The notes beneath the pieces were generated by a model, which did no database searches, was not told the DNA's origin, and saw only the letters and a program-made list of their open reading frames with translations. Made by a program: the position numbers and the translations under genes. From positions 45,974 through 109,973 of IMG/VR virus record IMGVR_UViG_3300022552_000002: a DNA stretch of 64,000 bases. One strand, 5' to 3'. Each line of letters opens with the position of its first letter. Positions within the stretch are counted from its first letter, which is position 1. The DNA comes from a virus. Shown here one piece after another: positions 9,331 to 60,209 of this stretch.

Positions 9331-10584
9331 ATGGATGATCTGAGAAACCACGAACTCCTCCAGCCAGCGCATATCTCCAAGCTGCTGGATGAGATCATTC
9401 CTGACGACAGTCAGTATTACATGACGACTATCATTCCGTTAGTCACTCAGGATACTGACGAAGTGATCGTGGATGTGCGCGACAATATCGGTGGCATGAC
9501 TCAGGCAGTGGCCCAGGGTGCTGAGTCGCCGATGGTTGAGTTCCGGGGACAGAGCCAGTTCAAGTTCACCCCGGCGCATTTCCGTGAGAAGACAGTGTTG
9601 AGTGAGCGCGATCTCAAAGTGATCCGCAAGATCGGTACTGCTTCTGAGTTAGCCAAGGCTGAAGATCGTGTGGCCGAGGTCGTTGGTGGTCTGCGTATGC
9701 GCCTCGAGACAAGGATCGAGTGGTGCAAATGGCAGATGGTCTTCGGTACTCTCGACATCGATCAAACCGATGTGCAGTTCTCGGTGGATTACGGTATTCC
9801 AGCGGACTACACGCCAACACTCGCTGGTGTTGACAAATGGGATGCGCTGGCAACAGCTGATCCTGTTGATGACATCATTGAGTGGGCGTACCTGTTCAGG
9901 GATGAGGGAATCGATCCTGAGTACCTGCTCTTTACTCGTGCGGTCGAGAAGCTTCTGCTTCAGAACACAACACTGCGTGAGTTGGCCGAGGCACACTACA
10001 CCAATACCGGCAAAGCCGAGATGAACACGGCTCGCCTCAACGAGATGCTGAAAACCTTCGCGGGTTATGCATACAAGGTGTACGACAAGGGTTACTTCTT
10101 CAAGATGAAGTTAGAAACTCCTGTCACACCAGCGAGCACAAGCTTCATCGTCAGCGAGAACCCTGGTGTCAATACTGGTGATGAGGTGACGTTGATCCAC
10201 AAGAGTGGTTCGCGTCTTCCTGGTGGAAAAGTGAAAGTCACGGTCACGCCGACCGGTCTTTCCTTTGCGCACGCTGCTATCGGTGGAACCGTGACCTTCC
10301 CGGCCGGTTCTACCGTTCGCATCAAGAAACGCTTCATCCCTGACAACCTAGCGTTGCTCATGGGTGCGGTGCCTCCTGGGACCACAGGTGGTACGGACTT
10401 CGCAGAGTTCGTTTCAACTCCAAGTCCCTACAATGGTGGCATCATGAATGCGCAGCCTGGTCCGTTCGGGAAGGTTGTTGTGGATGATGATGGCGATCCT
10501 CCTAAGGTGTCGGTCATTGCCGGTATCTCGGGGCTTCCTGTTCTGTATCATCCGACCTGCAACCTGATCGCTACTGTCTACTAG
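9331..10584 (+). CDS. Major capsid protein (lambda gpE/Phage_cap_E-like) with a beta-rich insertion domain
   Basis: FTPAHFREKTVL, RLETRIEWCKWQMVFG, VDYGIP, KWD...ADPVDDI and FIPDN, with a strong AAGGAG RBS and biased codons. Confidence 0.9.
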   Translation: MDDLRNHELLQPAHISKLLDEIIPDDSQYYMTTIIPLVTQDTDEVIVDVRDNIGGMTQAVAQGAESPMVEFRGQSQFKFTPAHFREKTVLSERDLKVIRKIGTASELAKAEDRVAEVVGGLRMRLETRIEWCKWQMVFGTLDIDQTDVQFSVDYGIPADYTPTLAGVDKWDALATADPVDDIIEWAYLFRDEGIDPEYLLFTRAVEKLLLQNTTLRELAEAHYTNTGKAEMNTARLNEMLKTFAGYAYKVYDKGYFFKMKLETPVTPASTSFIVSENPGVNTGDEVTLIHKSGSRLPGGKVKVTVTPTGLSFAHAAIGGTVTFPAGSTVRIKKRFIPDNLALLMGAVPPGTTGGTDFAEFVSTPSPYNGGIMNAQPGPFGKVVVDDDGDPPKVSVIAGISGLPVLYHPTCNLIATVY

Positions 10585-16396: not shown

Positions 16397-17179
16397 ATGC
16401 CATTAACACCCGACGACTACGATGTAGTTCAGGTCGTTAAACAAGAATGGCCTAATCTCGGCGGGAAACCTGGCCCACTTATCCCTTACTCTCTTCCTAT
16501 TGAACCTCTTGAAGATGGAATTGAAGCAGGAGCATTATTTGTAGTTGAAGTTGGAAGAAGAAATAAAAATGTAGCTATTTGGGCCAATCAAGGAAAGATG
16601 ATTTTTAAAGATATTGAGAACCCAGGTGTTGGTGGAATTGGATATACACTTACGCAGATTCTTACCGCAATTCTTGGACAAGTAAGAGTCAGCGCTAATG
16701 ACACTATTGCTGGTTATCTAAATGGCAAACTTATAGCTGGTACAGGAGTAAATCTCAATGAGCTGAATGACGGTGGTAATGAGGCGTTAGAGATTTCAGC
16801 TGAGTTTTCTGAGATCTTTTCGGTTGATTACGACACCGCTACTAACATACAAAGCACAAGCAGCACTACAGCGCAGGATGCTGGAGTGTCTGTTGAAATT
16901 CCTGTTGATGGTGATTATGTCGTATTCTTTGATTCTGAAACTCGTGTTTCTAATAGTAATGGTGATATGGCTATTAGTCTTAGCGCACCAAATACAATAA
17001 TTGAAAATTCTAGTACGGTGCGTATTATTGGTGGAAATAAACGTAGTTCGTCTATTATTATTTATCCATTTATTGGTTTGAGTACCGGTGATGTGATTAA
17101 AGGATTATTTCGCAAAGAAGGTGGTCCTGGCACGGCTTATGTTTATAACCGTTCCATGTTTTTGATGAGGATTGGCTGA
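16397..17179 (+). CDS. Fibre/spike-associated virion protein
   Basis: VRVSANDTIAGYLNGKLIAGTGV fibre motif and a C-terminal C1q/TNF-like beta-sandwich pattern. Confidence 0.55.
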   Translation: MPLTPDDYDVVQVVKQEWPNLGGKPGPLIPYSLPIEPLEDGIEAGALFVVEVGRRNKNVAIWANQGKMIFKDIENPGVGGIGYTLTQILTAILGQVRVSANDTIAGYLNGKLIAGTGVNLNELNDGGNEALEISAEFSEIFSVDYDTATNIQSTSSTTAQDAGVSVEIPVDGDYVVFFDSETRVSNSNGDMAISLSAPNTIIENSSTVRIIGGNKRSSSIIIYPFIGLSTGDVIKGLFRKEGGPGTAYVYNRSMFLMRIG

Positions 17180-18027
17180 TGACTGCTACTAAGTATCAGT
17201 ATTCCATCTCCAACGATTTTCCCAATCAGGCAGTAGATACTGACCGCTTGGAACAAGAAATTCGTGACAGTGTCATTATAATTGCTCTTGACTATGTTAA
17301 TACGTCAGGTGACGACTGCGATATTTGGTTTAAAGATGCATTGTCAGCTGGTGATAAAACAATACTTGATGGAATCGTTGCATCACACTCTGGTCTTCCA
17401 TTAACACCAGATCCAACTGAAGTTATTATTCAAGAAGAGTATGGTGTTAAAAGAACTGGTGGAAATTTTGGATCACGTAGTCATAATTTCGACATTTCAT
17501 CTGGTGTTCCTGGTGCATTAACTGAACACGATTTTAGTTTTCCAATTCCAATAGCTATTTTCAGCGCTCAACTTATTGGAAAAGAAATACTGGAAGGTGA
17601 TGAAATAGAATTTCAGATAGCACCAGATACTCCCATTGGAGCGTTAGTAGCAGATGTTGCTGTTGATGCTGAAGTAATAACTGTTACGCAAAGTGCGTAT
17701 GACAATTTGAAAGTTGGTTTTACTGTATGTTTAGATGACCAAACAAATCACAACAATCTGGGTATGGTGGTAGAAAAACAAGTAAACAATCAAATCAAAG
17801 TAGAGAAGAAAACTACAAATGCTTTTGCTGCATCTACACCAACGTATGTTCTTTTAACAGTGAAGATGATTCCTCATGGACATCTTCCATCTTGTTCTCG
17901 TCTTGTTCTTGGTGAAAGTAAAATTGGTGGTACATACATTAATGCAAATACAACACTTAGAATTATGTATAGAAATTCAGATGGACAAGCTAAGAAATTT
18001 GATTTCTGGTTAGAGTACATGTATTAA
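17179..18027 (+). CDS. Hypothetical virion protein
   Basis: 282-aa ORF coupled to the upstream gene. Contains LVADVAVDAEVITV, a beta domain like the MCP and tube insertions. Confidence 0.6.
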   Translation: MTATKYQYSISNDFPNQAVDTDRLEQEIRDSVIIIALDYVNTSGDDCDIWFKDALSAGDKTILDGIVASHSGLPLTPDPTEVIIQEEYGVKRTGGNFGSRSHNFDISSGVPGALTEHDFSFPIPIAIFSAQLIGKEILEGDEIEFQIAPDTPIGALVADVAVDAEVITVTQSAYDNLKVGFTVCLDDQTNHNNLGMVVEKQVNNQIKVEKKTTNAFAASTPTYVLLTVKMIPHGHLPSCSRLVLGESKIGGTYINANTTLRIMYRNSDGQAKKFDFWLEYMY

Positions 18028-18071: not shown

Positions 18072-18425
18072 ATGGGAAACATAATAAGCATATTAAAGGA
18101 ACTTGTTGGAATATTACGTGATGGTGGTCCATACGCAGGTTGGGCACTTTTTATTATACTTTGGTATTTTGAGCGCAGAGAAAATAAAATATTCAGAAAG
18201 GAAGGAATAAATTTAGCAATAGCACAAGTAGAAAATAATGTAAAAACAGAAATGACACTTCAGTCTTTAAAAGAGGCATTGAGTGGTGTTAAATATTCTC
18301 TTGGAGATATCACTGCTATATTAAATAAAATACAAACAATGAAAGAATCTTTACTCCAATTATCTTCTAAGCCTGACCTGAAACTTTTAGAAGACAAAAC
18401 GAAGGCAGACGACAAAGAAGAATAG
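18072..18425 (+). CDS. Small single-pass membrane protein with a coiled coil (holin-like)
   Basis: TM GGPYAGWALFIILWYF followed by ERRENK and a heptad region. Confidence 0.6.
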   Translation: MGNIISILKELVGILRDGGPYAGWALFIILWYFERRENKIFRKEGINLAIAQVENNVKTEMTLQSLKEALSGVKYSLGDITAILNKIQTMKESLLQLSSKPDLKLLEDKTKADDKEE

Positions 18426-18434
18426 GAGAAAAGC

Positions 18435-18800
18435 ATGTTTGGTTTTTTATTTTCAAAAAGAAAAATAAATAGAAATAGAGAAAAAGCAAAGGAAGATAAA
18501 ACATCATTAGGAAATCTTTTATTAAAAAGTGGTATTATTGAACCAGACGATCTGTGTGATGCATTGGAATTTCAAGATGAGAATACAGATTTTATGTTAG
18601 GAGAAGCTTTGATTCAATTAGGCAAAATAGATCGAGGAATTGTTGAAGCGCTTTTATGGACACAAAGAGTAGAACGAGGAGAAGAAGAACCAGCTAAAGT
18701 TATTCAATTTGCGACAAAACACACACAAAGAATTATGATAATAAAAGATGAAGTAAATGTAATGGCTCTGAGCCTCAATGGAAAGAAAGCTAAAGCATGA
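18435..18800 (+). CDS. Stand-alone MshEN-domain protein (c-di-GMP receptor fold of PilB/MshE/GspE)
   Basis: Two tandem 24-aa motifs, SLGNLLLKSGIIEPDDLCDALEFQ and MLGEALIQLGKIDRGIVEALLWTQ, joined by a 6-aa linker. They match RLGxxLLxxGIIxxxxLxxxLxxQ except at the Arg. Confidence 0.8.
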   Translation: MFGFLFSKRKINRNREKAKEDKTSLGNLLLKSGIIEPDDLCDALEFQDENTDFMLGEALIQLGKIDRGIVEALLWTQRVERGEEEPAKVIQFATKHTQRIMIIKDEVNVMALSLNGKKAKA

Positions 18801-19645
18801 TGGAACTTCCTATCGTTGGCGCTGGCGGTGGTGCAACACTCTATGCTCATTGGGGTGCACTTCAGTGTTTGATGGATCATGATATTTATCCATCAAGTCT
18901 CATTGGTGCATCTGCTGGTGCAGTTGCTTTCGCTCCAATTGCAAATGGAATGAAACCACATGATTGCTTAGGTATAGCACTTGAGCTTCTTCCAAAGAAA
19001 GTAATGTCATTTAATTGGAGATTTTGGCAAAGAGGTCATTGGGGTTTCTATACCTTAAAAGGATTGGAAAAAGCTTTAAGCAAATATGCTCCTAAGAAAT
19101 TCTGTCAATGTTTGATTCCACTTTATGTTGCTACAACAGATTTAACTACAATGAGATCAAGGATATTTAATCCCGATACAACGCCTACCATGAAAGTAGC
19201 TAAAGCAGTAAGGATATCAGCTAGTGTCCCATTTCTCTTTGATTTTGTTCCTTTTGATAACACTATTTTTTCTGATGGAGGTATTGTTGATAATTATCCA
19301 ATCGATTTAGTTGTTCCAGGTTCAATTGATTTAACAAAAGAACCAGCAATAGGTTTTAGACTTTTATCTTCTGGTGAAAGTACAACCAATAAAACACCAG
19401 ATACTTTCTTGGAAGCAGCTATTAATGTTTTAGGAGCAATGAGAGCAGAAGCAGAAAGAAAACATATCGAAAATGCAAATATTTGGTCACGCACCATCAA
19501 TATTCATGTGCCATGGAATTCGATGGACTTTTTGAATATTACCCAGGAGAAAATTGAGGAAATCTATCAAGTCGGTTATGATGCTGTTCAGAAGAAATTA
19601 GATTCTGGATGGAATCCAATGGAGGTTCCTGATGTCCTTAGTTAA
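18797..19645 (+). CDS. Patatin-like phospholipase
   Basis: Gly-rich GAGGGA..AHWG, nucleophile elbow GASAG, RISASVPFLF and catalytic DGGIVDNYP. Confidence 0.92.
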   Translation: MMELPIVGAGGGATLYAHWGALQCLMDHDIYPSSLIGASAGAVAFAPIANGMKPHDCLGIALELLPKKVMSFNWRFWQRGHWGFYTLKGLEKALSKYAPKKFCQCLIPLYVATTDLTTMRSRIFNPDTTPTMKVAKAVRISASVPFLFDFVPFDNTIFSDGGIVDNYPIDLVVPGSIDLTKEPAIGFRLLSSGESTTNKTPDTFLEAAINVLGAMRAEAERKHIENANIWSRTINIHVPWNSMDFLNITQEKIEEIYQVGYDAVQKKLDSGWNPMEVPDVLS

Positions 19646-20846
19646 TGTTCCTATTAATGTTGAAGACATAAGCGTTACTGCTTGTGATTTTGACTATATT
19701 GATGTCTACCGTGCGGAAACAAAATGGGGTTCGTATACTAAAATTACAGATAGCAATTCACGTTTAGAACTATGTGAAGAAGAATCGCATTATGAATATG
19801 GCGACGAAGATGGCTCAGAATACCATTGGTATAAATGGAAGTATGTTCAGACTGATGGAACAGAAAGTATTTTCTATGGTCCGATTCAAGCTCACACACC
19901 AAATGTTACATATTGTAAATTTGATGACGTAAAACGGTTACTTCGTTCAAGAAATTACGAAGGTTCAATACGTTTTTCTGACATCTATAAAAATCTAAGA
20001 AAAGGTGACGACGCACAAGATGTGTCTCTAGCTGCAATTTCACTTAGTCAAGATTATTCAGGTACAGAGCCTTTTAAATTAACGTTCTTGAATGTAACAG
20101 ATTTCAAACTTGAAGTTGGTGATGAATCTGAATTAACACTTAGGTATCTTGGACAAGGAAATATCAATACAGACTTCATTGCAAATGATTACTCTGTAAG
20201 AATCAATAGCGATGATTGGTCTGGTACTCCAGTTCAAGATGACGAGATGTTGTTTGATTCTGATAGCCACATGTCTATCAACGATGCTATTCAATTTATT
20301 AGAGATGCTGAAATTCTTGTTGATGTGATACTTGAAGAAAATCTTGGTTATACAGAAGCAAAAGATAATGAGTTGAGATTTACTAGATCTACTGCACCGA
20401 AAGCTATTGGCGCAGCAACAGCTCGTTTTGCTGCTTTCTTTATCTACACTACCATATACAAGGAACAACAAATTGCTGGTCTGCCAAGCAATATAAATGA
20501 CATCACTACTGCTTTGATTCATCGTAATGACGATCTCTCGAGCTGGGCCAAGCAAGCTATGAAATATCTCAGTGGATATATTAAGAAGTACAGCGAATAC
20601 TTTGATCCAGAATCAGGTAATGCACTTCAAACAGCTCCTCGTTGGATCACAGATGATAGTTTGTTTGATGGTAAGGGAGTCGTTGGAGTTGGTAAGGGCT
20701 TGAGAAGACCAGATATAGATTTGTTCTTTAGTAGATCTAACCAAAGCTACGATGGTTTACTCGATTGGGATTTATTGTTCCCTGGTTACGATGCAGTATA
20801 TGGAACAAGACTTGTCGGTTCAGAGGATGATACAGGTTACTATTGA
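19632..20846 (+). CDS. Putative head-tail adaptor with added Ig-like and beta domains
   Basis: TYCKFDDVKRLL ... IQFIRDAEILVDVIL ... PKAIGAATARFAAFFIY ... WAKQAMKYL follows the Mu gp36-type adaptor pattern. It is the first of three neck genes. Confidence 0.6.
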   Translation: MSLVNVPINVEDISVTACDFDYIDVYRAETKWGSYTKITDSNSRLELCEEESHYEYGDEDGSEYHWYKWKYVQTDGTESIFYGPIQAHTPNVTYCKFDDVKRLLRSRNYEGSIRFSDIYKNLRKGDDAQDVSLAAISLSQDYSGTEPFKLTFLNVTDFKLEVGDESELTLRYLGQGNINTDFIANDYSVRINSDDWSGTPVQDDEMLFDSDSHMSINDAIQFIRDAEILVDVILEENLGYTEAKDNELRFTRSTAPKAIGAATARFAAFFIYTTIYKEQQIAGLPSNINDITTALIHRNDDLSSWAKQAMKYLSGYIKKYSEYFDPESGNALQTAPRWITDDSLFDGKGVVGVGKGLRRPDIDLFFSRSNQSYDGLLDWDLLFPGYDAVYGTRLVGSEDDTGYY

Positions 20847-21994: not shown

Positions 21995-23779
21995 ATGGGT
22001 ACTCTTGGTCGAATTGCAATTGGAGCCCGTGGCCAGACTTCCTACGGGGAAGAGGTCGCTTGGGGCGAACCAGTTGCGCCTACTCGAAGAGTGGGTTTTG
22101 TTTCTGAATCTTTCAACAACGAGATCGCAAGTCTCGTTTCAGAGGAAATCGATCCTAGTCGTGGTATCTCGAAGCGTGCTCAAGGTGTGAGTAACATCTC
22201 GGGTGATCTAGCTTTCGAGCAGAACACGCAGGGATACGAAACTCTGTACAAACATGCTCTTGGTGATCACGTCACCATGAACAAGGTTGATGGTGGTGTT
22301 CGAACACAGATTCTTTCTGATTACGTTTCAGGTACAACGTTGTCAGTTGAGAACAATGCTGTGTTCGAAGGCACACCTGGAGCGGATTGGGGTCTGTCAG
22401 TTGTCTACAAAGACAGCAATGGACTCTTGACCGTTCAGGCAGTGGTATATTCTGCGCTGGATTCTGGTGGTGAAGACATCACCATCGTCGATCCAAGTCA
22501 GGTGCTTCATAAGGGCGCGTGGGTTTTCCAGAGCTATATCGGCAGCGATGACTTCTGGGATGATGTTTACACGCACTACATCGAAGCAGCACGCGATCTT
22601 CCCATCGGTCTGACCTGGGAGATCGGTCGTGACGTGGCGTTCTTCACTTATGGTGGCTGCAAAGTCAACACAGCGGAGAATACCTTCACGGCACAGGAGA
22701 TTTGCACAGGCACATTCTCCTACATCGGTAAGGGCGAGTATGTTGGTGGTGAGTTGGTTTCTGATGTCACTGCTGGTGATACAACCTTTACTCTCACTGA
22801 CTACGTTCTGACAAACAGTGGTAGCATTAGTGCTGCTGTTCAGACTGTTGGTGCTGGTCTCAGTGACATCACTGTGAGTGGTGCGTTCACTGGTGATGAA
22901 ACAACCGCTTACCAAATCAAGATCTCGTTGGCAGGTGCCACAGACGAGTTTGACTGGTCGAGCGATGGTGGCGTGACCTGGACAACTGGTGTCGTTATGA
23001 CTGGTGCAGCTCAGCTGCTCGACCAAGGCGTCTCCATTACATGGGCAGCTATCACAGGCCATGTGCTTGATGACGAGTGGCGCATTCAGACTGGTGACAT
23101 CATCGGTTTCAACTTCTCCGGTGCCACGGTGCAGATGGAGTCCGAGAACGATATCACTTACACAAGCTATAACGCTTACAGTGGTGTCTTCTCTGGTGTT
23201 CCAGCTTCCGGTGTTGGTTCTGTCGAGTATGACCATAGTGCAACTCTTCCGGTTGCTCCGCAGTCTACTTGGGGAACCAGCGTCACAGAGCCGCCAGCTC
23301 TCAATCCCATTACTAGCTTCAAGGCTGGTATCTACATCAATGGGACGTTCCAAGAGGTGCTGTCTGCTAGCTGGACCCTCAACAACAACCTGTTCGCAGA
23401 CAAGTTCCAGCTTGGTGACAGATACCGAGCTGGTCTTCCTGAGCAGCAAAGAACGGTTGAGGGCACGTTCAACACCGAGTTCGATGATACGGTCCTCTAC
23501 AAAGCTTATCTCAAAGGTGCTCGTGCTTTCCTCGAGATTCGCTGCATTGAAGACCAGAACCGCATCGACAGCCAAGGTGTGCAGACTGCTCCGACAGGAC
23601 ACTGGATTTACTCCCAGAAGCACTGTCTGTTCCCGAAGGTCTACTACAGTGGCACCACACCGCAGATCGGTGGCCCTGAGCAGATCGTCCACGATTTCCC
23701 GTTCCAGGCATTCGTGGATAACGAGAACACCATGAATGAAATGGCGCTCATCTTCGTCAACGAAAGAGTGTCCATCTAG
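21995..23779 (+). CDS. Tail tube (major tail) protein with inserted accessory domains
   Basis: YGEEVAWGE, SESF, FFTYGGCKVNT, WTLNNNL, RTVEGTFNTEFDD, FPKVYY and PQIGGPE are siphovirus tube motifs. Strong RBS and codon bias. Confidence 0.85.
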   Translation: MGTLGRIAIGARGQTSYGEEVAWGEPVAPTRRVGFVSESFNNEIASLVSEEIDPSRGISKRAQGVSNISGDLAFEQNTQGYETLYKHALGDHVTMNKVDGGVRTQILSDYVSGTTLSVENNAVFEGTPGADWGLSVVYKDSNGLLTVQAVVYSALDSGGEDITIVDPSQVLHKGAWVFQSYIGSDDFWDDVYTHYIEAARDLPIGLTWEIGRDVAFFTYGGCKVNTAENTFTAQEICTGTFSYIGKGEYVGGELVSDVTAGDTTFTLTDYVLTNSGSISAAVQTVGAGLSDITVSGAFTGDETTAYQIKISLAGATDEFDWSSDGGVTWTTGVVMTGAAQLLDQGVSITWAAITGHVLDDEWRIQTGDIIGFNFSGATVQMESENDITYTSYNAYSGVFSGVPASGVGSVEYDHSATLPVAPQSTWGTSVTEPPALNPITSFKAGIYINGTFQEVLSASWTLNNNLFADKFQLGDRYRAGLPEQQRTVEGTFNTEFDDTVLYKAYLKGARAFLEIRCIEDQNRIDSQGVQTAPTGHWIYSQKHCLFPKVYYSGTTPQIGGPEQIVHDFPFQAFVDNENTMNEMALIFVNERVSI

Positions 23780-25167: not shown

Positions 25168-28100
25168 ATGACAGGCGGTGGCCGAAGTATCACCTTCGGC
25201 GTTAATATATCTGTCAAAGAATTAGGTCTGATCAAGAAGCTTGCTACAGAGCTTCGTGAGTTCTCTACTGGTGCGATTGAAGCAGCAAAAGGTTTAGCTG
25301 CCATCAATAAAGTTGGTGGTCAGATTAATCCAGCGAATATCGATAAAGCAGCACAAGCTTTCGATAAACTAAATCAAGCTTTTCAAAGAATAAAAACAAC
25401 AAGTTCTACCGCAGGTCTTGGTTCTGTAGCTAAAGAAGTTAGTCAAGCTACTGGACAAATGGATGGTTTCACTCGAAAAACATCTACATTGCGTAGTCAA
25501 TTGGCTGAAGTAAATAAAGAAGCTTCAAAGATATCTACATCAATAAAATCAGACGAAGCATTAAGGGCAACTAAAACACAAATTGATAATACAAGATCTG
25601 CAACAAATAAATTACTTAGTAATTTTCAAAAGATATTATCTACAAGACAAAAACTTTCTCAATCAGAACGAGATGGCGTAACAGTAACTCAGTCAGTAGT
25701 AACTCAAGCCAATAGAGCTGTGGAGAGCTTTAGACAACTCCACAGAACCACACAATTCAATATTCAGGCATTCAGTGCTGCTTCTAAAAATGTAGAGAAG
25801 TTAGGTGTTGATGCAGATACAGTAAAGAATAGATATAAAAAAGTATCTGATGTTGTTAAACAATTAGTAGGAGAAATTCAAAAATTAGCAGCAACATCTC
25901 AACAAAGAATTAATCTAGAAAAACAAGCGAATGCTGTAATTAAAAGTTCTGGTCGTATTGCTGCATCGAAACAACTTCAACAAGCACAACAGAATCTCAA
26001 CAAAGAAAAAATCAAAGGCATTGAGCTGACTTCTCAGTTAGCTCAGATCGAAAGAGAAAGAGCGCGTGCTGCTCAACAACGTAGAGAGATAGTTGCTACA
26101 CCACGAGGTGCATTTGGTGCTGGTGCAGCTGGTGCCGATGCTCAATCTAAATCAATAGAAGCGGCAACAAAAGCTCTTGATGCATACGATAATAGACTTA
26201 AAGCATCTAAAGCTCTTATAGAACAACACAATCAAGTTCAACGTACAGCTGCACAAGTTACATTGAGAACTGCTGCCGTTAGAAATGCAGCAGCAATGGA
26301 AGTTCGTGCTGCTCAAAACATGATCGCACAAGGTTTTAGTCAAGTTTCACAGAAGGAATTACAAAGAGCACAACAATCGAGACTTTTTGCACAACAAGAA
26401 CTTGAAAATGCTAAGAAAGTTTTAGCAGCCAGACAACAAACTTTCCAACAATCGGCTGCTGCCTCTAAAGTATATGATAAGACTCAAAAAGACCAAATAA
26501 GAACAAGTCAAGCTCTTATAAATCAACAACAAAGACAGAGTGGTTTTCTTAATAAAATAAATGAAGGTTTTACTAGAGTTATTAGAACACAATTACTTTA
26601 CTTTGCTTCTACAATATTGATATTCGGAGCTATCGCAAAACTCAATGCATCATTCGAATCTCTTGTTGAACTTTCTGGACGTACAGCTAGAGCATTTGCT
26701 GTTTCTCGTTCTTCTGTACTTCTCTTTGAAGAACGTTTTGTTGCTCTACAAGAAGCAGTAGAAACAACCGCTGCTGTAACTGGTGAATCTATCAACGATG
26801 TAAGTGAAGCTATTTTCCAATTTGGTAGTGCTGGTCTTCAAGCAGAAGAATCTATTGCAGCTCTTGAATCTACAATGAATCTGATTCAGGCAACTGGTGC
26901 AGATGTAACAACTACTACAAAAACAATTGCAGCAACATATCGTTTGATGCGTGGTCAACTTGAAGATGTTGGCGATCAAACAGCAAAGTTCGCACGTATC
27001 AATGATATTATTGCTGCCACATATAGAGACAACCAAGTTGAAATTAACGACTTCACTCAAGCAATGAAGTTTGCTCTTCCTGTATCACGCCAGTTGAATC
27101 TTAATCTTGAACAGACTTCTGGAATCATCGCTCTCTTACATAACAACTTCATTCGTGGTGGTGAATCTGGTAGAGCACTACGTGTCATCTTCTCGCGTAT
27201 GTCGAGAGAGATGGATCAATTCTCTGAAGCATTTGGTATTGCAATCGATCCAGATAAACCATTAGATTTCTTAGATGTAATGGAACAGATTAGCAATCGA
27301 ATGAACACTGGTGCAATCACAGCTAATCAAGTTGCTACTGTTTTCGAGAGATTAGGTCTTCGTGGTGCAAATGCTTTCATTATTATGGCTCAACAATTTG
27401 AAGAATTAAATGGTGTTATCGGTAAATTAGAAGACACTTCTGCTGGTGCAGCGAAATCAATGGCACTTATCAAACGTGAAAGCGATCCAGGACAGCTTAA
27501 AGTATTTACAGAGAATATGCTGATACTTGGTCGTACAGCAATTGAACCTATTGGATTTATTATTTTGAAAGTTGTTCGAGCAATTAATACATTTGCAGAA
27601 GCAATTAGAGACACAGGAGTAGAAAAAGTTCTTGGTATTTTATTGAGACTAGTTTCTGTTCTTATCACAATAAAAGTTGCTGCTGCTCTTGCTTCACTTA
27701 TTTTTGGTCAACTTGGTATCAGCACTGGATTCATGGCTACTTCATCAATAGCCGCAGCATTAGCACAAGGTAAATTAATATTTGCAATGGAGTCTTCTTT
27801 AATAGTTGCTAAGAAAAATATCGCAACTATGCTTTCGCTTTCTGGTGCTTTGAATGTTTTGAAATTAGCAGCAATCAAAACTGGTGCAGTTCTTATTGCT
27901 GCTTTTCCATATGTAGCAATTGTAGCGTTAATTGGTGTTTTAGTTTATTGGATTTATCGACAAATTACAGCACAAGAAAGATTGATTGAGATAAATAATG
28001 AGAGACTCGAACAAATCAGAGAAGAAAAGAAGGAAAGAAATGAACAACTTGCTTCTTATGACAATACAATAGCAAAACTTGAAGATCTTAATCGAGCTTA

Positions 28101-31100
28101 TGAAGAGAATCGCACCACTATATTAGAAACGCGCAAAGCAATATCTGAAGCTGTTAAATCTCATGGAGAACTTGGTATTGCGGCAGCTGTTGCTGGTGAT
28201 GATCTTGGTTTATTTATCAATAAAACTAAAGAACAAAGAGCACAAATTCAAAGTTTATTAGATGAATTAAAGAAAGAAGATAAAGAAATATTCAAACAAA
28301 ATATAGAAATATTCACACAAAATATCGACAATGCTGCTGCCGCATATGCTAATCTTCAAGATCAATTAGATAGAGGCGTTATACAAAAAGCTAGTCCTCG
28401 TGGATTGATTCAAGAGTTTAAAATAACTGAAGGTGAAATCGAAAATCAAAGAGAAAAATTAGCTCAATATCAAAAGAACGCGAGAGATGCTGCGCTTGAA
28501 ATGATAAAACTTGCTAATAGTAATGGCGAATTAGCAAGATCGTTTGGTGTAGTAATTAACGAAGCATTTTCTGTTGCAGCATCTATGAATGCTTCAGCAG
28601 AAAATGCAAAAAGTTTTGGAAATGTATTAGAATATTTAGAAAGAACAGCTATAAATCTTTCAGAACTTCCTCTTAGAGAAAAGATTGATGAACTTAGAAA
28701 AACAGTTGAAGGTTTAGAAGGACTAAGACTAAAGTTTTTGTTCAAATATGATTTCATTATTCCACAAGAAAGCATTAATGAAGCAAAAAAGAAAACACAA
28801 GATGCTATCAATAAAATTAAATTACTAACTAAATCTGATAGAGAAATAAAAATTACTTTATTGTATGAAGAAGAAGATTTCTCTATTAATATGGAACATG
28901 TAAAAAAGAATGCAGATCAATTAGCAGAAATTACTAATTCTGCTATGAGAGATGCAACAAAAGGTTTAGATTTAGCACAATATATTACAGTAGATGACCA
29001 ACAAATTGTTAATTTATTCGAAGCTGTTGCAGAAAATACAAAACTTATAAAAAGTGGTTTTCAAGAAGGATCTAAAGAAGCTGTAAAATTTGCAAATAAT
29101 GCTAAGAAAATAGACGATGTTCGGCGTAGTATTCTTTCTCAAGCACAATTTTACGCTAAAAATCGAAACGAAATTGAAATTATCGAAAGAACTATCAATA
29201 CGCTCCTTGAAGATAGAGTCGCATTAGCAGAATATTTAGTGGTATTACAACAAAGACAAATAGCTGTCACTTCTGCATATAATTTGCAATTGAATGCAGA
29301 AATAGATCTACTTCAGAAGACAAGAAATCTTAGTCTCAACACAACAAAAAATACACAAGATCGAGTTGATGCAACAAGAGAACAAGTTGTTGCTACAGGT
29401 ATATTATATAGAGGTGCTGTTGCTAATGAAAAAATAGCAAGAAATAATTTGAAGACAATTGAAGATACGAAAAAAGGTATTCTAGGTACTATACGTCATT
29501 ATTTAACATTAAAAGAAGCTTCTAGTGAAGTAGAAAATGCCACAAAAGAAAGAGGCGAAATATACGAAAATCATAGAAAGTCATTAGAAGGACATACTAA
29601 ATCGCTTTTGGCTCAAGTCAATTGGACACATCAAATGAAGTCAGAAATTGAAAAATCATTTGATGCTCATAGAAAAATAAATCTTTACGGAGAAGATAGA
29701 GTTAGTCAATTAAGAGCAGAACTTGTTCATCAACGAAATATCATTAAAGAAGAAAAAAGATATTTAAAAGATTTAATAAGTGAAGGAATTATTCTTGAAG
29801 ATAAAGAAATTTTGAAAGCAAAAGATAGAGAATTAAGGGCCAAAACTGCTGAGTTACAAAGAAAAGAAACTCAAGAAATTTTCAAACAAAATATTGGATT
29901 GTTAAAAAATGCACAAGCTTTAGAATTAGCTTTAGCATCTGGTTCAGAGATGTTAAAAGTTAGCCAAAATATTGCTTTAATAGATGCTCGACTTGTAAAT
30001 GAAATGGAATTGTATAATAAATTGGTAAAAAGAATTAAAAAAGAAGAAAATAGTGTATATAGATTAGATAGACAAAGACTTGTGGTAATGGGTAGAATTA
30101 GAGCAGAAGCCGAAAAACGAGTTAAACAAGTTATTAAAGCTTTCGAAAAAGAAGTAGATATACGCAATCAATTTATCGAACAAGTCAACACAATAAGAGA
30201 AATGAATATAGCATTAGAAGAATCAAAAGACATTAAGGAACAAATACTCATTAGCACTATGGAAGAGCAAATTGCTTCTAAAGAATTAGAAACCATACAA
30301 AATAGAATCAATGTAATTGAAAAAGAAAGAGAGCTACAAGGATTTAGTGAGATTACAAGAAGATTAGAATTAAATAATCTGTACAACCAACAAGCAGATA
30401 TAATCAAGAATCGGATTGTTAAAGAACAACAAAAATTAAATAGTATTAGAGAAAAAGAAAGAAACTTAATAGATTCTGTTAACAATCTATATGGCAAACA
30501 ACTTGATAATATCGGACAAGTGAGAGACGCATTAGAAGAAGCATTCAAACCATTAGTTGAATTTGATTTCGATCAACGTCCATTTACTGCTGCTATCTTT
30601 GCTTCCCAAGCGCTTGGGAAGAATCTCTTAGAGATAGCTCAATTAAGTCCACAACAAGTTATTGATGAACTCAATACAGGTCTCCGTGAAGGAACTGTTG
30701 ATTTCAAGATATTCAGCGGTCATGCTCGAGAACTAGCTGAACATATTGCGCGCATTGGTGCAGAGGAAAGAGAGCTTCGTCAAATACAAGAAGATATAAG
30801 AGCACAAGAATTTGCAACAGATTTGCTTAGAGTTAAACGTGCATTATCTGTAGAAGACATAGAAGCAGCAAAAAAAGCTTTTGATAAACTTGGTGAGAGC
30901 GCTCAGGTTTTAGATCCCATTACTGGTAAAGTAGATTATGATGCTACTCGAAAAAATATGAATATGTTGAAAGATTTAGCAAATGAAATAGCAACAGCAT
31001 ATGAAGAAGCTGGAAATACAACTGAACAAAATCTAAAAAATCTTCAAACTAGATTGAATGAAATTCTTGGAGATATTGCTGAAGTAACAACAAAGATAGC

Positions 31101-34100
31101 AGATGAGTTAAAGAATACGAAGTTTGCAGATGCATTCTTCGATCAGATGACATCTATCATTCGTCAATTAAGAGATCTCAATGGGACGACCATTGAATTC
31201 AAAATCGATGATGTAACAGCACAGCTTGCTCGAATGAATGTGCTTGTTCCACAACCAACAGGATATCAAGAAGGTGGTCCTATTGGTGGGACAGGCAGAG
31301 GAGATATAGTTCCTGCTCTCCTCGAGCCAGGTGAATTCATAATACCAAGAAATGTAGTTGAATCTCTTGGTGTTGGATTCTTTGAAAACTTTAGAAATCC
31401 AAAGTTTGTTAAAAAGATTGCAGCTTTGAATGGCGTTAATGAGATTCCAAAATTTAAAGATGGCGGTCTTGTAGGATATCAAAATGGTGGTGCAGTTGAA
31501 TTTACTTCTGCCGAAGTATCAAATGCGTTCAATGCAATAGAATTTAGCGCAAAAGAAGTATCAGATGCATTAAATACTGTAGAGTTTTCTGCCAAAGAAG
31601 TAAATGAAGCGCTTTATGGAATTCAATTTTCTGCCAAAGAAGTAGCAGATGCATTAAATTCAATAGAATTTACTGAAGAAGAAATAATAAATGCAATGGA
31701 TTTGGAAAAAGCTATAGCGGCTTTACCAATGGGTGATGTTGATATTGATTTGGAAAAAGCTATAGCGGCTTTACCAATGGGTGATGTTGATATTGATTTG
31801 GAAAAAGCTATAGCGGCTTTACCAATGGGTGATGTTGATATTATAGAAAAAGAAAGAGCAGAATTGATTTCTAAATTGAGAGAAATGAATGCTGCTGGTG
31901 TTGATACAGCTGAAGAAATCAATCTAAGTGTCAGATTATTAAGAGGATGGGTTGAAAGATTAGAAGCAGAACCAATAGAAATGACAAAAGCAGTTGAAGA
32001 AGGATTTACTAATGTAGCTATGTCTACGGATTTAGCTTCTATTGTTGAAGAAGGATTTGCTAATATTGTAATAGACGAACCAAATAATGATAGGCAACAA
32101 TTGTTAGCAACATTAGCTGAATTAAGTCCTTCACAAGCTAAAACAGCTGAAGAATTAAATATAAGCAATAATCTTCTTGAAGCAGCAATTAAAGGACTCG
32201 AAAAAATAGCAGAAAAAGAAAGAATTATAGCAGAAGCAGGTTTAGGAAAAGAAGCCGATATTGGTCCTGAGAGAACAGAACAACTTCTTGATCTTCCTAT
32301 TGAAGAACTTAAAACAGCAATGAAAGAATATGTGGAATTTCGAAAATCCATATTAGAAAAAGAAAAACTTTTAGCAGAAGCAGGTTTTAAAGAATTTGGT
32401 CCTGGTAAAAAAGAAGAGTTAATCGACTTACCTATTGATGAGCTTGAAACTTTATTAAAAGAATACAAAAAAATACCATTATATGTAGAAGAAGGAGTAG
32501 AAATAGGAATAGGAGCACAACAAGATATAAAAATTAATTTTATTTATGAAGAAGAATTAGAAAAACTTAGATTAGAGTTAATGTCTCTTGATCAAACAAG
32601 AATCGAATTGTCATTTAATGCTACTGGATTAGATCAAATCAAAATCGATGTCAGAGGTATAGCTGAAGAAGTTCCTGGTAGCAAAAGAGCTGGCTTCCAA
32701 ACAGGTGGTCCTGTTCCTGGTATTGGTTCTGGAGATATAGTTCCAGCACTCCTAGAGCCAGGTGAGTTTGTTATACGCAAAGATATAGTAGATAAGCTTG
32801 GAATATCTTTCTTCAAAGATTTGAATAGATTTAAAGCTGGTGGCGTTGTTGGAATGCAGGCAGGAAGTCCTGGTAGTCCAATAACAACAGGTAATGTTCG
32901 CGGTTCTTTTGAATTACCAGCAATGGAACCATTTGTTGAACAAGTAAAAGTTGTTCGTGAAGAATTTGATAAAATTGCAGAAGATACAAAAGAAATTGCA
33001 AAAAATGTTGATAATGCGGAATTTGAAAAGATAACAAAAGAATTAGAAAATATAAAATCTCTTAATGTAGGTTTTGTTGAAAAATTGAGAGAAGCAGCAA
33101 AGTTATCTGGTAAAAAAATTGATGTTTCTAAATGGGGCGAACTCACCCAATATGCTAAAGAACTTGGTATTGATCCAATTATCATTACTCAAATGGGACA
33201 ACTTGGTACTGAAACTGATTCTACTGGTCAAATAATTAATAAGCTGCAACAAGAATCTGGTGGATATTTCTCTCAAATAAAAGAAATTATAAAAGGTGTT
33301 GGAAGTGGTGCAATTCCTGTTGGTAGAGCAATAACAGGTGTTCGTGCAGTTATTGGTAAATTCCAATCTGAAGTTTCAAATGCAAATAAAGAAGTTGTTG
33401 AATTTACTGAAGCATTACTCAATGCATTCGGTCCAAAGATTAGAAAAGCAATTCAATCTATTGTTAAAACATTCCAAGATGTTTTCGGAAGAATACTTCC
33501 TGGTTTATTTGGTGGTTTCTTAGATTCATTTATCGATACTCAAGTTGGTATAGTTGCAGCTGCCAATGAAGCAGCTGAACAAACAGCTGATGCTTATTAC
33601 GATGCTCGTGCAGATTTAGTTGAATCTTTGAAACGTAATGAAATTTCTTATTTCGACTACTTCAATAGTCTTGAAGATCTAAATAAAGATACTGCTGATA
33701 ATATGGCAGATGCAGCTATTCAAGCTGAACAAGATAGAGTAGAAGCTGTTGGTGATGCAATCGTTGGATTGACTAGCACAATACTAGATGAAGTAGGCAA
33801 ATGGGTAGATGGTTTTAGCGATTTCTTTGGAAACATAATTGATGGTTTCGTTGATATAGGCGTGGGCGTAGCCGATTCACTAGATGAAGTTGGAGCATTA
33901 ATAGGCAATATTATAGAAATGGGAATTGGCGCTCTTGGTGCAGCTGGTGGTGGAGGCATAGCAGCTGCCATTGGTGGTGTAGCCGGTACTGCATTGGCTC
34001 CTGGTGTTGGTACAGCTATTGGTGCTGGTGCTGGTGTTGCTATTGGATCTATTGTTGGTGGAGCTGTTGGATCTATATTTAAAACAGCTATTCCAATTGT

Positions 34101-57713: not shown

Positions 57714-60209
57714 TTGACCAAACGGTTTACAATACATGTGTCTGCAAATGAAGCCCAGGTTGAACAGCCGCTACCCTTCCGTGTAATCCGAGAGATCAAC
57801 AAGCTCACTTCCTATGAGCTTCCTGGAGCGTGGGTAAGCGGTCACGGTCCCCAGAGAGCCTATCTCTTCCGTAAGCAGACTCAGAAGTTTCCTTCTGGCT
57901 TATTAAAGCGTGTTAAAAAAGCTATAAGAAGAATGGGATATAAAACTAGAACAAAAGATTATAGAGCAGAAGTAAAGATAGACGAAAAAAAAGTCTTATC
58001 TATTTTTGATAATCTTGAATACAATCCTCGTTATTATCAAGCTGATGGCATTATAGAAGGAATACGTTATCCTTATGGTTTATTTTGGTGGCCTACAGGT
58101 TGCCACGCTAAAGGAACTAAAATCATTATGTATGATGGTTCCTTGAAAGCCGTGGAAGATGTTAGACCAGGAGATAAGTTGCTTGGTCCTGATAGTAAAC
58201 CAAGAACTGTATTAAGTTTAGCAAGAGGATTTGATGATTTATATGAAATTAATCCATTAAAGGGTGAAAAATTTATTGTTAATAAAGATCATATGTTATC
58301 TTTGGTTAGAACAAATGAAGGAGGAAGATGGAGCAAATTTGCTGGTGATATAGAGAATATTTCTGTTGAAGATTATCTTGGTAAAAGCGATTGGTATAAA
58401 CATACAAGAAAACTTTATAGATCTGGATTAGTTAAATTTAGTGGTTCATCTAAATTACCTTTAGATCCTTATGTGCTTGGTATATTACTTGGTGATGGTT
58501 GTTTTAGACAAAGTACAATAGGAGTAAGTACAGCAGATAAAGAAATTGTTGATGAATTGAATAAAAAAATTAAGAAATTTGGTTTAGAACTTAAACAAAG
58601 AGGTAAATATGATTATGGTTTATCTTCAGGAATTAAGAAAAAGAAAAATTTAGTTAAAGAAATTATTAAAGAATTAGGTTTATTAGGGTGTGACAGTTCT
58701 AATAAATTTATTCCTGATATATATAAAAGAACTCATGTTAAATATCGTTATGAATTATTAGCTGGTTTGATCGATTCAGATGGTTCTACTGAAGAAGATA
58801 AACACCAAGCAGAAATAACATCAAAATCATTTACTTTAGCAAGTGATATACAATTTTTATGTCGCAGTCTTGGTTTGATGGCTCAAATAAATGAAAAAAC
58901 AATTAATACGGGGGAATATAAAGGTAATGTTTATTTTAGAGTAACAATATCTGGTGATTTAGAAAATATTAATTCTAGATTGAAAAGAAAAAAGATAACC
59001 AGAAAACGCATAGCAAAGAAAAATGTCAATAGAACATCTTTCTTAACAAAATATCTTGGTGAAGGTATTTATTATGGATTTCAATTGAGTGGCGATCATT
59101 TGTATATGACTGATGATTTTATTGTTCATCATAATAGCGGAAAGACATTCCTTTTTTCCATGCTGCTACTCTGTTACAACGTGCCATCGCTCATCTTGAC
59201 CCATCGGAAAGAGTTGTTGTATCAGATACGTGATGCTGTTGAAGATATGACAGGAAAGAGTTGTGGCATCATCGGAGATGGACAGTGGAGTCCGAAAAAG
59301 TGGACTGTTGGTATAGTTAATAGTTTTATGCAGAGAGATAACCTTATCAAAGAGGTGTCTTCGTATCTTGAATCTATAGAATACCTCATCATCGACGAAG
59401 CTCATCACCTTGGAGCGAAGTCGTGGTGGAAGATAGCAAAAAAATGTAAGAATACACATGCTCGACATGGTTTTTCTGGTACATGTTTTCGTACAGATAA
59501 TGCTGATCTTCTTTTACTTGCTCATACTGGTGATGTGATTAGTCATTATACAACGACTTATATGATTGAAGAAGGTTGGTTGTCACGTCCTCATATTTAT
59601 AGAGATGTGACAATTGAAAAGATTTCATCTCATAGTGATTGGCATACTGTTGAAAATGAATTGATTATGAATAATAAAATGCGTAATAGAGCAGGTAGTC
59701 AATTCATTTATGATCAAGCAGGTGAAGGTAAACAAGTTCTTGTTATGGTGAGGCGTGTTCCTCATGGAAGAATCCTCAAGCAGATGTTGATTGGAGAGTT
59801 TGGTGTTGAGCCTAGAGATATTAGATACATGACTGGTAGCGAAGGAACAGATACTAGGAAAAGAGCCCTACTCGACTATAAATACGGAACATTTCCAATT
59901 TTGATTGGAACGAGTATATATGATGAAGGGATTGATCTTCCTACTATTGGTGCTGCTGCTAATATGGGTGGTGGAAAGAGCGATATTAAGACAACACAGA
60001 AACTTGGAAGAGCTATCAGAAAAATAGTTCCAGATGGTGAAATGGATGTTGATCCTGAAATAGAACAAACAGTGAACTATTATGATCCATTTGATAAAGG
60101 TCATCGATTTGTAAAGAAACATAGCAACACGAGACAAGAAGTATATGAAGGCGAAGAAGCATTTGTGCTCAAGGGTGCATACAATGACAAAAAGATTTCC
60201 AAGACCTGA
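57714..60209 (+). CDS. SF2 DEAH helicase (UvsW/SSL2-like) containing an intein
   Basis: Q motif PRYYQ, Walker A PTG|SGKT split by the intein, IIDEAHH, GFSGT, DEGIDLP and QKLGRAIR. Confidence 0.92.
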   Translation: MTKRFTIHVSANEAQVEQPLPFRVIREINKLTSYELPGAWVSGHGPQRAYLFRKQTQKFPSGLLKRVKKAIRRMGYKTRTKDYRAEVKIDEKKVLSIFDNLEYNPRYYQADGIIEGIRYPYGLFWWPTGCHAKGTKIIMYDGSLKAVEDVRPGDKLLGPDSKPRTVLSLARGFDDLYEINPLKGEKFIVNKDHMLSLVRTNEGGRWSKFAGDIENISVEDYLGKSDWYKHTRKLYRSGLVKFSGSSKLPLDPYVLGILLGDGCFRQSTIGVSTADKEIVDELNKKIKKFGLELKQRGKYDYGLSSGIKKKKNLVKEIIKELGLLGCDSSNKFIPDIYKRTHVKYRYELLAGLIDSDGSTEEDKHQAEITSKSFTLASDIQFLCRSLGLMAQINEKTINTGEYKGNVYFRVTISGDLENINSRLKRKKITRKRIAKKNVNRTSFLTKYLGEGIYYGFQLSGDHLYMTDDFIVHHNSGKTFLFSMLLLCYNVPSLILTHRKELLYQIRDAVEDMTGKSCGIIGDGQWSPKKWTVGIVNSFMQRDNLIKEVSSYLESIEYLIIDEAHHLGAKSWWKIAKKCKNTHARHGFSGTCFRTDNADLLLLAHTGDVISHYTTTYMIEEGWLSRPHIYRDVTIEKISSHSDWHTVENELIMNNKMRNRAGSQFIYDQAGEGKQVLVMVRRVPHGRILKQMLIGEFGVEPRDIRYMTGSEGTDTRKRALLDYKYGTFPILIGTSIYDEGIDLPTIGAAANMGGGKSDIKTTQKLGRAIRKIVPDGEMDVDPEIEQTVNYYDPFDKGHRFVKKHSNTRQEVYEGEEAFVLKGAYNDKKISKT
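58101..59135 (+). mobile_element. Intein with LAGLIDADG homing endonuclease (345 aa)
   Basis: Starts CHAKGT, block B VNKDHML, LGILLGDG and LAGLIDSDG motifs, ends VHHN followed by Ser(+1). Confidence 0.95.

Follow-up and report, generated by a model that had tools for sequence, protein, structure and literature searches.

The subject of this analysis is a three-gene cassette in IMG/VR virus record IMGVR_UViG_3300022552_000002, a linear record of 110 kb with a CheckV completeness of ~76 %. Its last 64 kb (64,000 nucleotides) are called the window here, and all positions are given within it. The cassette extends from 18072 to 19645 on the + strand and consists of three co-oriented open reading frames (ORFs), located between a fibre-like gene and the genes that precede the tail tube gene. 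It lies within a virion operon, as the original prediction, made from the letters alone, had proposed. Its three genes are:

18072-18425, + strand: gene of a 117-amino-acid holin-like protein (ORF, hydropathy)
18435-18800, + strand: gene of a 121-amino-acid stand-alone MshEN-like protein, with AGGAG 7 nt 5' of its ATG
18797-19645, + strand: gene of a 282-amino-acid patatin-like phospholipase (match to PF01734)

The two junctions that had been described as overlapping were found to be so. The TGA of the MshEN-like gene (18798-18800) and the ATG of the patatin gene (18797-18799) form the tetranucleotide ATGA, and the next gene, which encodes a protein of 404 amino acids, starts with an ATG at 19632, 14 nt inside the patatin gene.

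The MshEN-like protein displayed a basic N-terminal tail, two motifs at residues 24-47 and 54-77 corresponding to a four-helix bundle, and a long C-terminal helix at residues 86-114; no signal peptide was found in it. The published MshEN domain contains twice a 24-residue motif, RLGxx(L/V/I)(L/V/I)xxG(L/V/I)(L/V/I)xxxxLxxxLxxQ, separated by a 5-residue spacer, and in MshE the arginine leading each motif stacks on a guanine while the terminal glutamine is hydrogen-bonded to the ribose-phosphate (Wang et al. 2016, PMC5013675). Motif I of the phage protein fitted 10 of the 11 specified positions and motif II eight of 11, with one additional conservative change. The motif-leading residues were S24 and M54 instead of arginine, position 11 of motif II was a lysine, and the spacer was six residues long versus five in MshE. 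NCBIfam model NF053729, which describes a 53-residue motif for cyclic di-GMP (c-di-GMP), gave an E-value of 9.4e-9 with 34.9 bits (cut-off 38), and the Pfam MshEN model PF05157 gave no match to the protein, even at E 10.

Homology was also seen with profiles and structures. The profile of the 74-sequence family described below matched PilF (6.6e-19), MshE (2.2e-10) and PilB (2.5e-9) in the PDB. In an AlphaFold2 model of the protein, the 10-residue blocks over residues 21-80 reached a predicted local distance difference test (pLDDT) of 83-90, and the ten best Foldseek matches of this model were all c-di-GMP-bound PilF GSPII-B or MshE. The closest ones displayed a root mean square deviation of 1.0-1.1 Å over 53-54 residues, with 31-38 % identity and a probability of 0.99; E-values were only 0.27-0.5 because the domain is small. 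The C-subdomain of MshEN was absent and the single long helix 86-114 stood in its place.

Sequence and model together identify the protein as genuinely homologous to the c-di-GMP-binding four-helix bundle of MshEN, which has 53 residues. Like the MshEN/GSPII domains of MshE, PilF and PilB (PMC5013675; PDB 5htl, 8pdk), it is composed of tandem 24-residue motifs folding as a four-helix bundle, in which the LG pair, the hydrophobic positions and the terminal glutamine are kept. Unlike them, it is a stand-alone protein of 121 residues devoid of C-subdomain and ATPase, carries serine and methionine in place of the leading arginines, displays a 6-residue spacer and an extra long C-terminal helix, and is encoded beside a membrane-protein gene; its binding of c-di-GMP is putative. 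The lack of a PF05157 match, the missing C-subdomain, the longer spacer and the replacement of both leading arginines indicate that it is not a standard MshEN domain. The original prediction of a stand-alone tandem MshEN domain consequently stands with regard to the homologous bundle and its two motifs, and needs amendment with regard to the lost arginines, the spacer and the blank PF05157 search.

When 1.84 billion cluster representatives were searched with a profile, 1667 of them matched at E <= 1e-3, and the best 150 were considered. Almost half of these (73) were proteins of 95-150 amino acids, most of them of ~110-125, in which one stretch covered most of the profile. The family alignment comprised 74 sequences, and at least 70 clusters at 50 % identity form an undescribed family of stand-alone MshEN-like proteins of ~110-125 amino acids. 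The other matches were long multi-repeat MshEN proteins, which were taken to be cellular. The first residue of motif I was serine in 65 of the 74 sequences and arginine in none, and that of motif II was methionine or leucine in 58 and arginine in seven. Ligand-contact positions were kept across the family, namely Q47 (65/74), Q77 (73/74), G26 (70/74) and G56 (74/74), and the N-terminal tail was basic in 74 % of its members. No fusion to a transmembrane segment or to a patatin was encountered among the inspected sequences from the best 150 matches, and the literature search brought up no paper connecting MshEN with lysis or with a phage-encoded protein.

The 117-amino-acid protein encoded upstream displayed an amphipathic N-terminus and a GG(P)Y turn, then an aromatic-rich hydrophobic segment (residues ~20-34) with a K/R-rich flank, and ended in a charged helical tail. 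Its hydrophobic stretch was 14-16 residues long, with a 19-residue Kyte-Doolittle mean of ~1.2. The single transmembrane segment announced by the original prediction is probable only: a hydrophobic segment is present and is short for a transmembrane helix. GG-YA and QV-NV were invariant in an alignment of six lineages (A3). The profile of this protein gathered 24 relatives, four of which seemed to be paired with homologues of the MshEN-like protein, as their longest contigs were equal in size; the two families appear to travel together. In the ESM Atlas, the clusters nearest to the protein were viral, and one of them carried Holin_BhlA in 28 % of its members, which is retained as a lead only.

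The third gene was predicted to encode an intact patatin, and this was borne out. The protein matched Pfam PF01734 with 89.7 bits (gathering cut-off 27.7; E = 3.7e-25) and displayed the GASAG nucleophile motif (G37-A-S39-A-G41) and a DGG motif at residues 160-162. S39, D160, G161 and G162 were invariant in an alignment of 11 sequences with identities down to 31 % (A8), and the invariance of the catalytic serine and aspartate predicts an active enzyme. The glycine-rich loop, read as GAGGGATL, was devoid of the basic residue of GGGx[KR]G, with G10 and G12 invariant. Solved relatives in the PDB included PlpD, VipD and ExoU, and no signal peptide was found in the protein. With CapV, the patatin of the cyclic oligonucleotide-based anti-phage signalling system (CBASS), it shares the patatin fold, the Ser-Asp dyad, the cytoplasmic location and an expected need for control. 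Membership of the CapV type was rejected: the CBASS lipase model NF041079 gave 20.5 bits against a cut-off of 200 (E = 2.3e-4), the PADLOC phospholipase effector models gave weak matches (E = 2e-6), the gene is part of a phage late structural operon, and no cGAS/DncV-like nucleotidyltransferase (CD-NTase, SMODS) was present, be it as a neighbour or elsewhere in the record. Neither this search nor that for GGDEF genes found anything in the 110-kb record, in agreement with the earlier remark that no cyclase was visible. Neither the patatin nor the MshEN-like protein nor the 404-amino-acid protein had a true relative in the phage collection. A patatin match labelled 'Acinetobacter phage MD-2021a' (L015, CAKLQH020000002.1 144593-155069) was discarded, being surrounded by transporters, a threonine dehydratase and other bacterial housekeeping genes in a region that looks like bacterial chromosome.

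Gene contexts were compared by tblastn synteny and ORF maps between the window and seven contigs (L001, L010, L004, L005, L006, L007 and L008). IMG/VR scans with single proteins and alignments returned one related contig only. All three cassette genes and the 404-amino-acid gene were kept in two close relatives, L001 (an IMG/VR contig) and L010, a 42-kb contig assigned by binning to a Halanaerobiales metagenome-assembled genome (MAG), which carry the membrane-protein and MshEN-like genes with a patatin at 75-82 % identity; Halanaerobiales are not claimed as host, the binning of this one contig being the sole basis for it. In the distant L006 (GC 0.57), the membrane-protein and MshEN-like genes were accompanied by a gene for a patatin 31 % identical to that of the window, and the genes further downstream were unrelated. 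The recurrence of the three-gene order, suggested earlier as a check, was thereby found in L001, L010 and the distant L006, each time with a stop/start overlap, and the junction into the patatin gene was ATGA in both the window and L006.

The other contexts were devoid of patatin or ended too early. In L008 (GC ~0.4), the membrane-protein gene and the MshEN-like gene were followed after 8 nt by the 404-amino-acid gene, which leaves no room for a patatin. L007 (GC ~0.4) likewise displayed the MshEN-like gene and, 8 nt further, the 404-amino-acid gene, without patatin, its contig end being too near to show the membrane-protein gene. In L005 (GC 0.63) the pair was followed by an unrelated gene of 200 codons, again without patatin, and the contig of L004 (GC 0.63) stops just past the pair. 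The gap between the two genes of the pair was 9 nt, and they abutted or overlapped in L005 and L006. From these arrangements, the membrane protein and the MshEN-like protein are the conserved unit, predicted to be a functional one, and the patatin is an optional third gene. Since the pair also occurs without it, the MshEN-like protein is probably not a dedicated patatin switch; even so, two separate lineages have the patatin gene translationally coupled at the same place, which suggests that the lipase and the MshEN-like protein are functionally connected.

Among 401 sampled genomes of the phylum of the MAG, the membrane-protein profile matched only the phage-like MAG contig itself. A second bacterial-genome match of this profile lay over MinD/MinE genes with a stop codon inside and was read as chance. 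L006 also encodes, at 2450-2833 and ~700 nt 3' of its patatin gene, a 128-amino-acid protein with an N-terminal transmembrane segment, a coiled coil and a proline-rich tail, which may be i-spanin-like or a second holin-like protein.

Directly 5' of the pair, L004 (601-1451) and L005 (1-597) share two genes, namely a small ORF that is conserved and encodes about three hydrophobic segments and, overlapping it (ATGA), a gene of 158 amino acids; the latter measured 166 amino acids in L005 from its listed start and 158-159 from its methionine. The ESM Atlas placed the 158-amino-acid protein near permuted papain-like C92 amidases (score 0.94), a lead according to which the order of the two genes may look like that of a holin and an endolysin.

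The surroundings of the cassette in the window are as follows:

from 3016, + strand: terminase gene
from 5128, + strand: portal gene
9331-10584, + strand: major head protein gene
from 14788, + strand: fibre-like gene (YadA_stalk and tail-fibre PHROG matches)
18072-19645, + strand: the three-gene cassette
19632-20846, + strand: 404-amino-acid gene, presumed to encode a structural or neck protein and conserved beside the cassette
21995-23779, + strand: tail tube gene (Phage_tube_2, E = 2e-28)
25168-36426, + strand: ORF of 3752 amino acids, after the tail tube gene and two chaperone-like genes

Between the major head protein gene and the cassette, ~11 kb are occupied by small genes and fibre-like ones. 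Downstream, the cassette is followed by conserved genes of 404, 204 and 178 amino acids, the tail tube gene, the 3752-amino-acid ORF, large tail genes and replication genes. The same DNA was present in marine and sediment metagenomes. The product of the 404-amino-acid gene, called a head-tail adaptor in the original prediction, had no match in Pfam, PHROG or the PDB, the comparison of its profile (A7) with the PDB also gave nothing, and its structure was poorly predicted (pLDDT 41.6).

The GC content at third codon positions (GC3) of the cassette was 0.16-0.23, the same as in adjacent phage genes; because of this match the cassette is native to the phage and not a recent insertion. Promoter-like and terminator-like sites around it were no more frequent than in shuffled sequence, and together with the GC3 match and the place of the cassette in the + strand gene order this makes late expression probable.

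A few further observations were made in the window. Codon composition was split within one operon, GC3 being 0.61 for the major head protein gene and 0.54 for the tail tube gene, versus 0.16-0.26 in adjacent late genes, the cassette and the 3752-amino-acid ORF included. This ORF presumably encodes a tape measure protein of great length. Close relatives differed in the genes that separate the fibre-like gene from the cassette (window 16397-18027; L001 1308-5091; L010 2699-5616), and conservation of the protein encoded at 16397 was limited to its first ~109 residues (67 % identity in L001), so that these variable genes just 5' of the conserved cassette look like a swappable receptor-binding or fibre cassette. 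An 831-amino-acid helicase (ResIII and Helicase_C; 57714-60209) was split by a Hint domain and a LAGLIDADG homing endonuclease and looks like an intein-bearing gene.

The interpretation that we favour, tentatively and at somewhat less than even chances, is that the cassette is a late-expressed module for lysis or membrane disruption, in which a holin-like protein is joined by a cytoplasmic regulator and, optionally, by a lipase as effector. A conceptual model for such an arrangement is found in phage T4, whose cytoplasmic antiholin RIII is a small soluble helical protein that binds the cytoplasmic part of the single-span holin T and sets lysis timing. In the phage considered here, the 117-amino-acid protein would use its short hydrophobic segment near the N-terminus to enter the cytoplasmic membrane, leaving its charged helical tail in the cytoplasm. 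The MshEN-like protein would be cytoplasmic and produced in step with it, as the 9-nt gap or overlapping genes suggest; its long C-terminal helix would dock on the tail of the membrane protein, and it would, in the manner of RIII, set the moment of membrane permeabilisation by the membrane protein. In lineages that have it, the translationally coupled patatin would hydrolyse membrane phospholipids as lytic effector and replace or supplement an endolysin or spanin. Binding of c-di-GMP or some other nucleotide by the bundle may, in addition, tune the timing of lysis, which is speculative. Topology, pairwise interaction, role in lysis and any ligand are what we infer for these proteins, and the likeness to T and RIII is one of concept only, a soluble cytoplasmic regulator acting on a single-span holin, with no relation in sequence or fold. 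A patatin without signal sequence needs control, because it could attack the inner leaflet from the cytoplasm at any time, and a membrane-tethered regulator is a reasonable form of such control.

Indirect support for a role in lysis comes from the holin-like profile of the 117-amino-acid protein, from the lysis-like neighbours in L004 and L005 and from the parallel with Wolbachia phage WO. The proposed lytic cassette of phage WO consists of a patatin and a small holin-like protein encoded just upstream of the tail module; the latter has fewer than 150 amino acids and a single N-terminal transmembrane segment, and its C-terminus is a coiled coil with a charged tail. In WO-like relatives, a GH108 lysozyme takes the place of the patatin (Bordenstein & Bordenstein 2022, PMC9203015). 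Of the traits of phage holins, the 117-amino-acid protein displayed the small size (<150 amino acids), the charged C-terminal tail and the linkage to a patatin, along with a short hydrophobic segment. In both systems a patatin gene stands beside a small holin-like gene near the tail or connector module, and relatives keep the holin-like gene with another enzyme or with none. They differ in the third partner, which is an ankyrin-repeat protein in WO and an MshEN-like bundle here, and in the argument, as the WO case, itself only proposed, was made from the absence of peptidoglycan in Wolbachia. The window, L001, L010 and L006 display a layout of the WO type, as an analogy of layout only; no WO record was matched in the phage collection, which may lack WO prophages. 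The original prediction knew of no described phage system with this layout; the patatin and holin-like cassette of phage WO is a partial precedent (PMC9203015). No endolysin was found in the 110-kb record with the models Amidase_2, Amidase_3, Phage_lysozyme, SLT, GH25, NLPC_P60, M15_4 and C92, which is weak evidence because the record is incomplete.

Several points weigh against a lysis module. With the record ~76 % complete, a canonical lysis cassette may sit in the missing part. The hydrophobic segment of 14-16 residues is short for a membrane-spanning helix, and the 117-amino-acid protein belonged to no Pfam or PHROG family and matched no holin hidden Markov model (HMM). A lysis cassette would not usually be expected between fibre-like genes and those of the neck or tail, a location that suits a virion-related role equally well. 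For the 158-amino-acid gene of L004 and L005, the HMM search returned PHROG_1128, labelled enoyl-CoA-hydratase-like, which disagrees with the C92 lead, Pfam was blank, and the PDB sequence search gave weak matches only (best E = 0.05). Finally, the contexts compared represent a small part of the ~73 MshEN-like clusters.

A bolder form of the lysis module is regarded as unlikely: tailed sediment phages would carry a widespread family of membrane-tethered stand-alone nucleotide sensors of MshEN type (at least 70 clusters), through which the lysis clock and, in part of the lineages, a patatin would respond to host c-di-GMP or a related dinucleotide; such a sensor would be a second-messenger-controlled antiholin.

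A host-takeover decoy is likewise considered improbable. The membrane-tethered bundle would mimic the N-domain of PilB/MshE/GspE-type ATPases or soak up c-di-GMP and so shut down type IV pili or else type II secretion, whether to exclude superinfecting phages or to prevent progeny from adsorbing to dying cells, the patatin being an unrelated accessory. The N-domains of pilus ATPases are indeed the nearest homologues of the bundle, the pair is independent of the patatin, and phage proteins targeting PilB, such as Tip and Aqs1, exist. However, takeover genes are usually early or moron genes and not part of a late structural operon, and the constant holin-like partner and the tight coupling of the patatin would be left unexplained.

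The original prediction itself, a phospholipase gated by a second messenger, was given a rather small chance. It holds that the MshEN-like protein senses host c-di-GMP (or cyclic GMP-AMP, cGAMP) and switches the patatin directly, with the membrane protein as anchor, so that lysis or membrane breach follows the biofilm or motile state of the host. Its domain calls, the embedding in the operon and the recurrence of the gene order were upheld. Many patatins require an activator, as is the case of CapV with cGAMP and ExoU with ubiquitin, and the overlap of the MshEN-like stop with the patatin start recurred in two distant lineages. The ligand-contact glutamine and the LG glycine of both motifs were kept family-wide (65-74 of 74), the N-terminal tail was mostly basic, and the model superposed on c-di-GMP-bound MshE and PilF at ~1 Å. 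In MshE, charged substitutions including Arg9 changed affinity less than fivefold and hydrophobic ones more than tenfold (PMC5013675). What speaks against direct gating is that the MshEN-like gene or the pair occurs without patatin in L005, L007 and L008, and that both motif-leading arginines are missing across the family. The serine found there is also present in PilF GSPII-A, which did not bind even after its consensus had been restored (PMC12002112); conformity to the motif is accordingly neither sufficient nor fully necessary for c-di-GMP binding (PMC5013675, PMC12002112). The 6-residue spacer, the blank PF05157 search, the NF053729 score below cut-off, the lack of any MshEN-patatin fusion among the inspected sequences of the best 150 profile matches and the absence of a cyclase from the record add to these objections.

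A function in the virion or at entry was held to be quite unlikely. In that case the patatin, and perhaps both partners, would be built into the virion and assist the passage of the genome through the host envelope at infection, which agrees with the place of the cassette between the fibre-like gene (14788) and the 404-, 204- and 178-amino-acid genes preceding the tail tube gene, and with the 404-amino-acid gene adjoining the pair in L008 and the MshEN-like gene in L007. Against it, the proteins display neither a signal peptide nor a packaging signal and are not fused to any structural domain, a free membrane-anchored protein would be an odd part of a tailed-phage virion, and the patatin is optional among relatives with the same structural genes. 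A toxin or defence module carried by the phage and serving abortive infection or competition between phages, with a CBASS-like patatin effector triggered by a competitor, is very improbable in spite of the weak PADLOC and NF041079 matches, given the score of 20.5 versus 200 bits, the lack of a CD-NTase, the embedding in a late operon with promoter-like sites no commoner than in shuffled sequence, a composition native to the phage, and the occurrence of the membrane-protein profile in only one of 401 bacterial genomes sampled, where the MAG contig concerned is phage-like.

The finding is best classed as a variant phage cassette for lysis or membrane attack, with a partial precedent in phage WO, together with an undescribed phage family of arginine-less stand-alone MshEN-like proteins paired with a holin-like protein. 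If the pair is indeed composed of a holin and its cytoplasmic regulator, it would represent a new and apparently common type of regulator in phage lysis control. The patatin would then join that of phage WO as a second and independent example of a lipase acting as lytic effector, which bears on phage exit from hosts with unusual envelopes. Should the bundle bind a nucleotide, it would be the first phage-encoded receptor of MshEN type and a direct link between the second-messenger state of the host and the timing of lysis. Either way, the arginine-less SLG.../MLG... variant offers a natural test case for the motif requirements of c-di-GMP binding by MshEN domains.

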